Shown in pieces: positions 18,701 through 21,700 of a DNA stretch of 45,892 bases. Origin of the DNA: a virus. Its lineage: Duplodnaviria > Heunggongvirae > Uroviricota > Caudoviricetes. Positions within the stretch are counted from its first letter, which is position 1. Each line of letters starts with the position of its first letter. The stretch lies in the IMG/VR virus record IMGVR_UViG_648276653_000019, one strand, 5' to 3'. The position numbers were made by a program.

Positions 18701-21700
18701 CGATCTGCACGGATGCTACACGAACCTGATGAGCAAACTGGATACGATTGGATTCGACAACAAAAAAGACCTGCTTATCTCGGTGGGCGATTTGGTTGAT
18801 CGTGGTGCAGAGAACGTTGAATGCCTGGAATTAATCACATTCCCCTGGTTCAGAGCTGTACGTGGAAACCATGAGCAAATGATGATTGATGGCTTATCAG
18901 AGCGTGGAAACGTTAATCACTGGCTGCTTAATGGCGGTGGCTGGTTCTTTAATCTCGATTACGACAAAGAAATTCTGGCTAAAGCTCTTGCCCATAAAGC
19001 AGATGAACTTCCGTTAATCATCGAACTGGTGAGCAAAGGTAAAAAATATGTCATTTGCCACGCCGATTATCCTTGTGATGAATACGAGTTTGGAAAGCCA
19101 GTTGATCATCAGCAGGTAATCTGGAACCGCGAACGAATCGGCAACTCACAAGACGGGATCGTGAAAGAAATCAAAGGCGCGGACACGTTCATCTTTGGTC
19201 ATACGCCAGCAGTGAAACCACTTAAATTTGCCAACCAGATGTATATCGATACCGGCGCAGTGTTCTGCGGAAACCTCACATTGATTCAGGTACAGGGAGA
19301 AGGCGCATGAGACTCGAAAGCGTAGCTAAATTTCATTCGCCAAAAAGCCCGATGATGAGCGACTCACCACGGGCTACGGCTTCCGACTCTCTTTCCGGTA
19401 CTGATGTGATGGCTGCTATGGGGATGGCGCAATCACAAGCCGGATTCGGAATGGCTGCATTCTGCGGTAAGCATGAACTCAGCCAGAACGACAAACAAAA
19501 GGCTATCAACTATCTGATGCAATTTGCACACAAGGTATCGGGGAAATACCGTGGTGTGGCAAAGCTTGAAGGAAATACTAAGGCAAAGGTACTGCAAGTG
19601 CTCGCAACATTCGCTTATGCGGATTATTGCCGTAGTGCCGCGACGCCTGGGGCAAGATGCAGAGATTGCCACGGTACAGGCCGTGCGGTTGATATAGCCA
19701 AAACGGAGCAGTGGGGGAGAGTTGTTGAGAAAGAGTGCGGAAGATGCAAAGGTGTCGGCTATTCAAGAATGCCAGCAAGCGCCGCATATCGCGCTGTAAC
19801 GATGCTAATCCCAAACCTTACTCAACCCACCTGGTCACGCACTGTTAAGCCGCTGTATGACGCTTTGGTGGTGCAATGCCACAAAGAAGAGTCAATCGCA
19901 GACAACATTTTGAATGCGGTCACACGTTAGCAGCATGATTTCCACGGATGGCAACATATTAACGGCATGATATTGACTTTTTGAATAAAGTTGGGTAAAT
20001 TTGACTCAACGATGGATAAATGCACTCGTTAAATAAAGCCCTGAGTTAATAGCTCGGGGCTTTTTGCGTTTTAATCACGACCTTTCTGAAAGCACATCAA
20101 ACCAAATACCAGACAGACAAAAATAATCACCTTATCCGCTGTGGCTACGGTGCGGTGTGCTTTGCATAAAAGAAAACCAGCGCAATGGCTGGCTTCGTGA
20201 AAGCGGGTGGCAAGAGGTTGCGCTAACAACCTCCTGCCGTTTTGCCCTTATTCCTAATTAAATAGAGCAAATCCCCTTATTGGGGCTAAGACATGAAGAT
20301 GCCAGAAAAACATGACCTGTTAGCCGCCATTCTCGCGGCAAAGGAACAAGGCATCGGGGCAATCCTTGCGTTTGCAATGGCGTACCTTCGCGGCAGATAT
20401 AATGGCGGTGCGTTTACAAAAACAGTAATCGACGCAACGATGTGCGCCATTATCGCCTGGTTCATTCGTGACCTTCTCGACTTCGCCGGACTAAGTAGCA
20501 ACCTCGCTTATATAACGAGCGTGTTCATCGGCTACATCGGTACTGACTCGATTGGTTCGCTTATCAAACGCTTCGCTGCTAAAAAAGCCGGAGTAGAAGA
20601 TGGTGGAAATCAATAATCAACGTAAGGCGTTCCTCGATATGCTGGCGTGGTCGGAGGGAACTGATAACGGACGGCAGAAAACCAGAAATCATGGTTATGA
20701 CGTCATTGTTGGCGGAGAGCTATTCACTGATTACTCCGATCACCCTCGCAAACTTGTCACGCTAAACCCCAAACTCAAATCAACAGCCGCCGGACGCTAC
20801 CAGCTTCTTTCCCGTTGGTGGGATGCCTACCGCAAGCAGCTTGGCCTGAAAGACTTCTCTCCGAAAAGCCAGGACGCTGTGGCACTGCAACAGATTAAAG
20901 AGCGTGGCGCTTTACCGATGATTGACCGCGGTGATATTCGTCAGGCTATCGACCGTTGCAGCAATATCTGGGCTTCACTGCCGGGCGCTGGTTATGGTCA
21001 GTTCGAGCATAAGGCTGACAGCCTGATTGCAAAATTCAAAGAAGTTGGCGGAACGGTCAGAGAGATTGAGGTATGAGCAGAGTAACCGCGATTATCTCAG
21101 CTCTGGTTATCTGCATCATCGTCTGCCTGTCATGGGCGGTCAATCATTACCGTGATAACGCCATCGCCTACAAAGAACAGCGCGATAAAAAAGTCAGTGA
21201 GCTGAAGCAGGCGACCACCACCATTACTGACATGCAGCAGCGCCAGCGTGATGCTGATGCACTCGATGCTAAATACACGAAGGAGTTAGCCGATGCAAAA
21301 GCTGAAAATGATGCTCTGCAGCGCAAGCTTGATAATGGTGGTCGGGTGCTCGTCAAAGGCAAGTGTCCAGTGTCAGCCGCAACCCAAACCACCGGCGCCG
21401 CCAGCATGGGCAATGATGCCACCGTCGAACTCTCTGCAGTTGCTGGACGAAACGTTCTCGGTATCCGGTCCGGAATCCTCAGCGACCAAACAGCCCTGAG
21501 AGCGCTGCAGGAATACATCACCACGCAGTGCCTGAAGTAAGGCATTACAGAGCCACTTCCAGAGGTGGCTCGATAATGTCAAGGCGAGGACAAAATTATG
21601 GCAAAACCGGACTGGGAGGCCATCGAATCGGCATACCGGGCCGGAGTCCTTAGTCTCCGTGATATAGGCGATAAATACGGCGTTACTGAAGGGGCTATCA

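Follow-up and report, generated by a model that had tools for sequence, protein, structure and literature searches.

A compact allele of the lambda-type Q-dependent late switch, with a terminator hairpin that recurs between unrelated flanks in lambdoid phages

In phage lambda, the late promoter pR′ yields a constitutive short RNA, the 6S RNA of 194 nucleotides (nt), which ends at the terminator tR′, and the antiterminator Q brings about read-through into the late genes. Q-lambda loads onto a polymerase paused at +16/+17, and forms a nozzle, which the 5′ end of the RNA threads at an RNA length of about 12–16 nt and which then blocks formation of the terminator hairpin (PMC9388147). Q-type proteins of lambda and P22 have been reported to be interchangeable. 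The late promoters of phages 21, phi80, 82 and P22 have likewise been noted to yield short RNAs under antitermination control, and the pR′-to-tR′ RNA of the late region of Stx phages, StxS, which is made in lysogeny as a by-product of antitermination control, is 258 nt long, is converted by RNase E to a 74-nt form, binds Hfq and regulates rpoS and stx1B (PMC7547250). Here we analyse the late control region of a virus of the Caudoviricetes, IMG/VR record IMGVR_UViG_648276653_000019 (the whole stretch of 45,892 nt is referred to as the window), in which tR′ follows pR′ closely and the 5′ half of the tR′ hairpin reappears in a second hairpin within the tail module, hereafter hairpin 2.

The window belongs to a lambdoid phage or prophage. 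We find that positions 19973–20072 are almost certainly an ordinary, standard Q-dependent late switch in a compact allele. Our best explanation as a whole, which combines this switch with a reused terminator cassette at tR′, descent of hairpin 2 from the same pool of terminators and the union of both hairpins in one genome by module shuffling, is probably correct. The elements of a lambda-type Q-dependent late cassette were found together: an upstream gene of the Q-lambda family, pR′ with a Q-binding element, the AACGAT pause element and a terminator ahead of the late genes. The Q gene (19307–19930, plus strand; PF03589 at 1.3e-57) encodes a late antiterminator of 207 amino acids (aa), identical to lambda Q at 206 of 207 residues, and the −35 hexamer of pR′ begins 43 nt downstream of its 3′ end at 19930. 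A promoter scan places pR′ at 19973–20001 on the plus strand, with TTGACT (19973–19978) and TAAATT (19996–20001) separated by a spacer of 17 nt. Inside the promoter, between the two hexamers, lies the Q-binding element TTTTGAATAAAGTTGGGTAAA (19979–19999, plus strand), which has two mismatches to that of lambda; the −35 and −10 hexamers and the pause element are shared with lambda. Aligned with lambda, HK97, Emek and mEp235, the window follows lambda pR′ without gaps as far as about +21, starting where Q ends; the only differences are the two mismatches in the Q-binding element and a few more beyond +9. Both pR′ and qut are annotated in the records of mEp235 and HK620.

Lambda numbering assigns −10 to the third base of the −10 hexamer and +3 to the third base of the pause element, which spans +1 to +6 (bioRxiv 10.1101/2022.01.24.477500). 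Because we carry this numbering over, AACGAT of the window (20008–20013, plus strand), a sigma-dependent pause element by homology to lambda, is set at +1 to +6, and transcription is predicted to start at its first A, at 20008, by identity with lambda pR′. The same +1 applied to lambda places the T-run of tR′ at +188 to +193, in agreement with the 194-nt 6S RNA. The pause itself, its position likewise taken from lambda, is predicted at +16/+17 (20023/20024, plus strand).

The intrinsic terminator tR′ was located by a terminator scan at 20035–20072 on the plus strand, with a stem of 13 base pairs (bp) at 20035–20063, an AAU loop and a U-tract (20061–20065) followed by GCG and UUUU. Its arms AAAGCCCUGAGUU and AGCUCGGGGCUUU form 13 pairs, two of them G·U, with a predicted folding energy of about −19 kcal/mol (z −4.9); the reverse strand reaches only −13.5 kcal/mol and contains an internal mismatch. 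The Emek record annotates this hairpin as a rho-independent terminator. The 5′ arm begins at +28, the last G–C pair falls at +53 and the U-tract at +54 to +58, which bears out the distance of some 30–60 nt between pR′ and tR′ proposed by a first-pass annotation of this DNA. An RNA terminated here without Q would measure about 58–61 nt, with a 3′ end near 20065–20068, compared with 194 nt in lambda; the accompanying claim of a constitutive transcript far shorter than that of lambda therefore holds as a prediction from the sequence and from comparison among phages.

Such a short leader poses no mechanistic problem, because the polymerase does not reach the 5′ arm of tR′ until +28, past the point at which Q is loaded. 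RNA polymerase would initiate constitutively at pR′ and, through sigma-70 bound to AACGAT, pause at +16/+17. Without Q it would terminate at tR′ and release an RNA of roughly 60 nt, whereas Q bound to its element between −35 and −10 would be loaded onto the paused polymerase and make it resistant to the terminator hairpin. The modified polymerase would then read through into S (the holin gene, which starts at 20293, downstream of tR′), R and Rz and the morphogenesis genes; both the Q-dependent read-through and the termination at tR′ are predicted for this locus.

The window and lambda thus share the logic of a constitutive short RNA and Q-dependent read-through, but they differ in the leader that carries it. 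Lambda has 194 nt where the window has about 60; homology ends near +21, and the window lacks about 135 nt of the lambda leader. Neither the terminator hairpin of lambda, CCCGAAAC...GUUUCGGG, nor the stretch that separates tR′ from the conserved CTTCGTGAAAGC block is related to its counterpart in the window. As a possible sequence homologue of lambda 6S RNA the leader fails, since it aligns only to about +21 and ends in a different hairpin, and we regard the predicted leader RNA as a functional analogue of 6S RNA and not as its sequence homologue.

Two further hairpins occupy the late leader between tR′ and S. One resembles a terminator on the minus strand (20173–20196; a 9-bp stem, then UUUUCUUUU) and is kept in HK97, Emek and mEp235 but not in lambda; the sole minus-strand open reading frame (ORF) upstream of it, at 20229–20071, has 52 codons and a TTG start and gives no Pfam match. 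The other is a long plus-strand hairpin at 20209–20247 (GGCAAGAGGUUG/CAACCUCCUGCC, then GUUUUGCC), which is conserved with lambda, HK97 and Emek. Directly after this second conserved hairpin, and before S, about 70 bp present in lambda, HK97 and Emek are missing from the window and from mEp235.

The compact leader is not peculiar to this phage: HK97, HK022, HK620, mEp235 and the P22-like Emek carry the same allele. The 401-nt region around it is 99.8% identical to mEp235 and 95–98% identical to HK544, HK140, HK106, HK97, HK022, Sf101, Emek and others, and is matched by 194 phage records. In mEp235, HK97, HK022, HK544, HK620 and Emek the late region has the same promoter, Q-binding element, pause element, leader and hairpin, and in the alignment the leader and hairpin are exactly alike in HK97, Emek and mEp235. 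We also scanned viral contigs with the core of lambda pR′, GGGTAAATTTGACNCAACGATGG; among the matches listed, 120 contigs were classified. The leader is short in 64 of them (the hairpin is identical in 48 and slightly altered, chiefly in the loop, in the others), long and lambda-like in 54, and truncated in two. The tR′ hairpin with its immediate flanks occurs in 337 of 5,426 complete Escherichia coli genomes. The compact leader is thus one of the two alleles in which the lambda-Q late control region commonly occurs, the other being that which encodes the 194-nt 6S RNA; the same Q protein works with both, and the lambda allele is the one that has been studied. The literature we searched yielded no statement of size for the short RNA of P22 or HK022. 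The late switch is in itself a textbook element, and this allele of it had already been sequenced and partly annotated in HK97, HK022, HK620, mEp235 and P22-like phages. For annotators it follows that a 6S RNA of lambda size is not to be expected by default, as about half of the lambda-Q-type phages are predicted to make an RNA of about 60 nt.

The near invariance of the leader among short-type loci might suggest that the RNA has a role of its own. It could be a trans-acting small RNA like StxS, with the hairpin kept for a function at the RNA level such as chaperone binding, a proposal that is compatible with our preferred explanation. StxS offers a precedent, being a pR′–tR′ by-product that acts as an Hfq-dependent regulator, and so do the short late-promoter RNAs of 21, phi80, 82 and P22 (PMC7547250 for both); the predicted fold, in which a linker rich in A/U connects a 5′ stem-loop with the terminator hairpin, would also suit such an RNA. 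Recent common ancestry explains the near invariance, the U-tail has just five U before GCG, and the hairpin stands behind leaders of unrelated sequence, which leaves no common seed region. Lambda 6S RNA has no ascribed function, and Rfam searches returned no relevant family either at gathering thresholds over the whole window or at relaxed thresholds over 19900–20300. We consider a trans-acting role quite unlikely.

Beyond this one allele, the tR′ hairpin recurs as a cassette of about 30 bp, AAGCCCTGAGTTAAT-N-GCTCGGGGC-T5–8, with unrelated flanks across lambdoid phages, and it is very likely that the hairpin has been reused as such across contexts. A search of IMG/VR with the 15-mer of the shared half-stem plus a non-A base gave 84 loci. 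In 16 of these, the sequence forms a terminator of the type AAGCCCTGAGTTAAT-(C/T)(G/A)CTCGGGGC-T4–8, with at least seven different left flanks and at least eight different right flanks; 54 lie in unrelated contexts without a hairpin and are taken to be random occurrences. The cassette follows a PF03589 antiterminator of 254–259 aa in loci L012, L022, L057, L058, L006 and L072, a PF06530 antiterminator of 162 aa in L065, and a phrog_753 protein of 203–205 aa (‘anti-termination protein Q-like’) in L017, L067 and L040, and in L068 a lysozyme gene lies about 160 nt upstream of it; the types of antiterminator that it follows number at least four. It is also present in phages of Cronobacter, Pantoea and Hafnia, in the Hafnia case directly before transfer RNA (tRNA) genes. 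In L017, where a regulator gene on the minus strand ends about 12 nt rightward of it, the hairpin probably serves both directions.

In L072 and L040, the cassette ends a long leader that is homologous to lambda 6S RNA. A further viral contig, L136, has a lambda-6S-like leader that ends, at about +150 to +200, in a third and different hairpin, AAGCCCCGCAGAGATGTGGGGC-T4, behind GTGACCATAG, the left flank of the cassette in L072 and L040. As this flank stands before different hairpins, terminator hairpins have been swapped at a fixed junction. A second example of reuse is the terminator AGGCCTGCTGGTAATCGCAGGCCT-T5 of the window (16108–16131, plus strand), which occurs at many loci whose flanks have no 11-mer in common, so that whole terminator hairpins appear to be reused generally in these phages. 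Another hairpin of L017, AAAGCCTTGCTTAATCGCAGGGC, was considered as a compensated variant of the cassette; its flanks are unrelated and we do not rely on it. A full-text literature search with the tR′ hairpin sequence returned only unrelated primer matches, and the sequence does not appear in the StxS paper.

A more far-reaching, and in our judgement unlikely, version of this idea is that the hairpin of about 30 bp is a portable unit, more than one interchangeable terminator among many. It would be either a patch of homology where lambdoid phages exchange morons, late modules and antiterminator modules, or an element retained because the short pR′ transcript acts at the RNA level, and hairpin 2 would be a scar of such traffic. 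If true, it would explain why one hairpin is found after four types of antiterminator and downstream of a lysis gene.

Hairpin 2 (37753–37779) belongs to a different setting. In correction of the first-pass annotation, it is a terminator of the minus strand, where five T follow the stem, and the terminator scan calls it on that strand only. The stem is a perfect 8-bp helix (37759–37766/37772–37779) with five GC pairs, and a loop read as UUAAC (minus strand) or GUUAA (plus strand). Five U (37758–37754) follow the stem on the minus strand, whereas the plus strand continues with AAAATC, because of which hairpin 2 is not a plus-strand terminator. A 51-nt minus-strand segment containing it is predicted to fold at −20.9 kcal/mol (z −4.8), including an extra outer helix.

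The gene that hairpin 2 would terminate encodes a DUF4236 protein of 105 aa whose C-terminal part includes a hydrophobic segment (37786–38103, minus strand; PF14020 at 5.4e-21; phrog_18347, unknown function), and its stop codon lies 6 nt before the hairpin. Upstream of the gene, a consensus scan found a promoter-like site, TTGATA-17-GATAAT, that matches at 10 of 12 positions (38175–38203, minus strand). Leftward transcription of this unit, ended by hairpin 2, is thus predicted. On the left it is bordered by the late-operon gene phrog_3443 (37543–37755, plus strand), whose stop abuts hairpin 2, and on the right by a baseplate protein gene (38191–38922, plus strand). Among 80 related loci gathered by means of the baseplate protein, 67 have the phrog_3443 gene upstream and only seven carry DUF4236. 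Across loci L274–L353, the gap that corresponds to 37756–38190 is a hot spot, with dozens of unrelated inserts among those 67; the flanking genes are adjacent, with no insert, in L332, L333 and L348, and are separated by a plus-strand terminator only in L302, L309, L327 and L352.

The DUF4236 gene is therefore absent from most relatives at the same site and has its own terminator and a promoter-like site, the latter by consensus only. In this it resembles the morons defined for HK97 and HK022 by Juhala et al. 2000 (as cited in PMC2629481), which likewise combine a promoter-like site with a factor-independent terminator between late genes that are adjacent in relatives. It differs from that type in being oriented against the late operon and in that its promoter is a consensus match only. 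The ORF at 37543–37755 covers only positions 45–113 of the 115-position phrog_3443 profile, and its homologue in vB_EcoM-689R2 is annotated with 112 aa; the window copy may be truncated at the N-terminus or have lost its start.

What joins the two hairpins is the 16-mer AAAGCCCTGAGTTAAT, present on the plus strand at 20035–20050, where it comprises the A-tract, 5′ arm and loop of tR′, and at 37757–37772, within hairpin 2. The 5′ halves are thus identical and the 3′ halves differ, as had been noted, with an exact identity of 16 nt. Together with the left flank, 20 of 23 positions agree (20028–20050 versus 37750–37772), and the remaining flanks are unrelated on both sides. The same letters play different roles, GTT being paired in tR′ and looped in hairpin 2.

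Whether this identity requires any common origin depends on how often it would arise by chance. The 16-mer has only these two copies in the window, even when two mismatches are allowed; a distant 16-mer repeat as such is close to chance expectation. The window contains three distant exact 16-mer pairs, mutually unrelated, and Markov-shuffled windows contain 0.2–0.75, with a probability of 17–56% of at least one. By itself, then, the repeat is not significant; that both copies occupy the same position in terminator hairpins is unlikely. For an estimate of the latter we predicted terminators over 2.5 Mb of sequence (545 unique hairpins, 148,240 pairs) and extrapolated the distribution of the longest common substring, which falls roughly geometrically over lengths of 7–10. 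This rough, uncalibrated extrapolation gives about 7e-5 per terminator pair for at least 16 shared nt or, when all pairs of the window's 26 terminator-like hairpins are taken together, a chance of at most about 0.02. Single-linkage clustering of the 545 hairpins by shared 12-mers was uninformative, as T-runs chained all of them together.

These figures bear on an account in which the identity is a coincidence, or a convergence of two independent terminators, and hairpin 2 arose from a local terminator within the operon of the tail module. The near-chance expectation and the two other unrelated 16-mer pairs fit it, as do the 54 non-hairpin loci of the 15-mer; both terminators need a flank rich in A/T, a stem whose start is rich in GC and a loop of small size, AAAGCCC starts are common among phage terminators, and relatives have plus-strand terminators at the tail site, some with a GCCCAC stem as in the diverged locus L264 discussed below. 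The shared position within the hairpin, with its rough chance of at most 0.02, weighs against it, as does the extent of the identity, which reaches 20 of 23 nt with the flank and 20 consecutive nt with the cassette of L017, a cassette that demonstrably moves between contexts. We regard coincidence as possible but doubtful.

We lean instead towards hairpin 2 being related to the tR′ cassette and thus a trace of terminator reuse. The cassette allele of L017, in which the hairpin likewise borders a minus-strand gene, and hairpin 2 have 20 consecutive nt in common, AAAAAAGCCCTGAGTTAATC. Identity covers 16–20 nt of 5′ arm and loop, and the 3′ arm of hairpin 2 is shortened (CAGGGC versus CTCGGGGC) and is not followed by a plus-strand T-run. 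Formally, removal of four nt from the 3′ side of the cassette and a single G>A substitution yield hairpin 2. This substitution turns a wobble U·G pair of the plus strand, which is a C·A mismatch on the minus strand, into a Watson–Crick pair, the change that a leftward terminator would be expected to need. A diverged orthologue, found in L264 and L342 (DUF4236 47% identical), has GGGTTAAATAAAGCCCACTGAGTTAAGTGGGCTTCTAT at the same place, and its hairpin shares GTTAAATAAAGCCC and TGAGTTAA with window positions 20028–20049. By this scenario, hairpin 2 would derive from the pool of cassettes as a shortened relative and would now terminate an independently transcribed leftward moron in a hypervariable baseplate site.

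Several points weigh against this reading and the explanation of which it is part. The relatedness rests on 16–23 nt, in part an A-tract and a GCCC stem start that are both common in terminators, and cannot be proven; the shared origin that had been suggested is plausible, in view of a promiscuous cassette and the 20 nt in common with L017. We give the similarity of L264 and L342 limited weight, because GTTAA of the shared flank is in L264 the end of the upstream gene and because GCCCAC stems occur in other terminators there: plus-strand terminators with GCCCAC/GTGGGC stand at the same tail site in L329, L345 and L349, and the L264 version could descend from these local terminators instead. 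Forms intermediate between cassette and hairpin 2, such as TTAATCGGGGCT, were not found among the 84 viral-contig matches, and the loci examined included neither a DUF4236 gene beside a full tR′ cassette nor a full cassette at the tail site. The cassette contexts were themselves found with an exact 15-mer, so that the constancy of the 5′ half arises partly by construction. At the late switch, the start site, pause and termination point of this allele are predictions transferred from lambda.

If the two hairpins are related, the route is a separate question. The first-pass annotation had suggested a recombination footprint, that is, an exchange between two sites in this genome or in a direct ancestor. 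Phage recombinases can use short homologies, and the 16-nt patch lies in the same orientation at both sites. Comparison with other phages nevertheless makes such an exchange highly improbable. A 651-nt segment that includes hairpin 2 is 100% identical (651/651) in the Klebsiella phages GZ7, RCIP0034 and RCIP0098 and in Wanchaivirus PDP110P2, and all 14 viral-contig matches to TTAATCAGGGCT have the same flanks. GZ7 has this identical moron together with a different Q, of 269 aa, and a different tR′ hairpin, AAGCCCGAGGTTAACGCCTTGGGC-T5, followed by tRNA-Asn and tRNA-Arg, which contradicts an exchange between the two hairpins of the window. The Q–tR′–S block of the window, for its part, is 99.8% identical to that of mEp235, and beyond the patch the flanks of the two copies are unrelated on both sides. 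The suggested footprint is therefore not upheld. Within our preferred explanation, the two hairpins would have been united in one genome by module shuffling and, if related, would be linked through a common pool of terminators and not through exchange between these sites; no functional link between tR′ and hairpin 2 is indicated. Short identities between terminators should accordingly not be read as functional coupling, and identical terminator hairpins between unrelated flanks are relevant to the origin of mosaic joints and morons.

The tR′ hairpin of GZ7 (L354, 1860–2060) has a layout like that of the window, AAGCCC..GAG..TTAA..GGGCTTTTT, and its order of hairpin and then tRNA genes is also seen in the Hafnia phage Meifeng.

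Elsewhere in the window, the hairpins at 10682–10705 and 26484–26505 were called as terminators on both strands and are apparently bidirectional. The sole Rfam match in the window is sRNA-Xcc1 (RF02221) at 3436–3525 on the minus strand, with 65.4 bits against a gathering score of 53. A cluster of direct repeats at 14189–14313, CCGCACATGAAGCCGCACA..., has copies 24–93 nt apart with up to 31 nt exact, and looks like the iterons of a replication origin.

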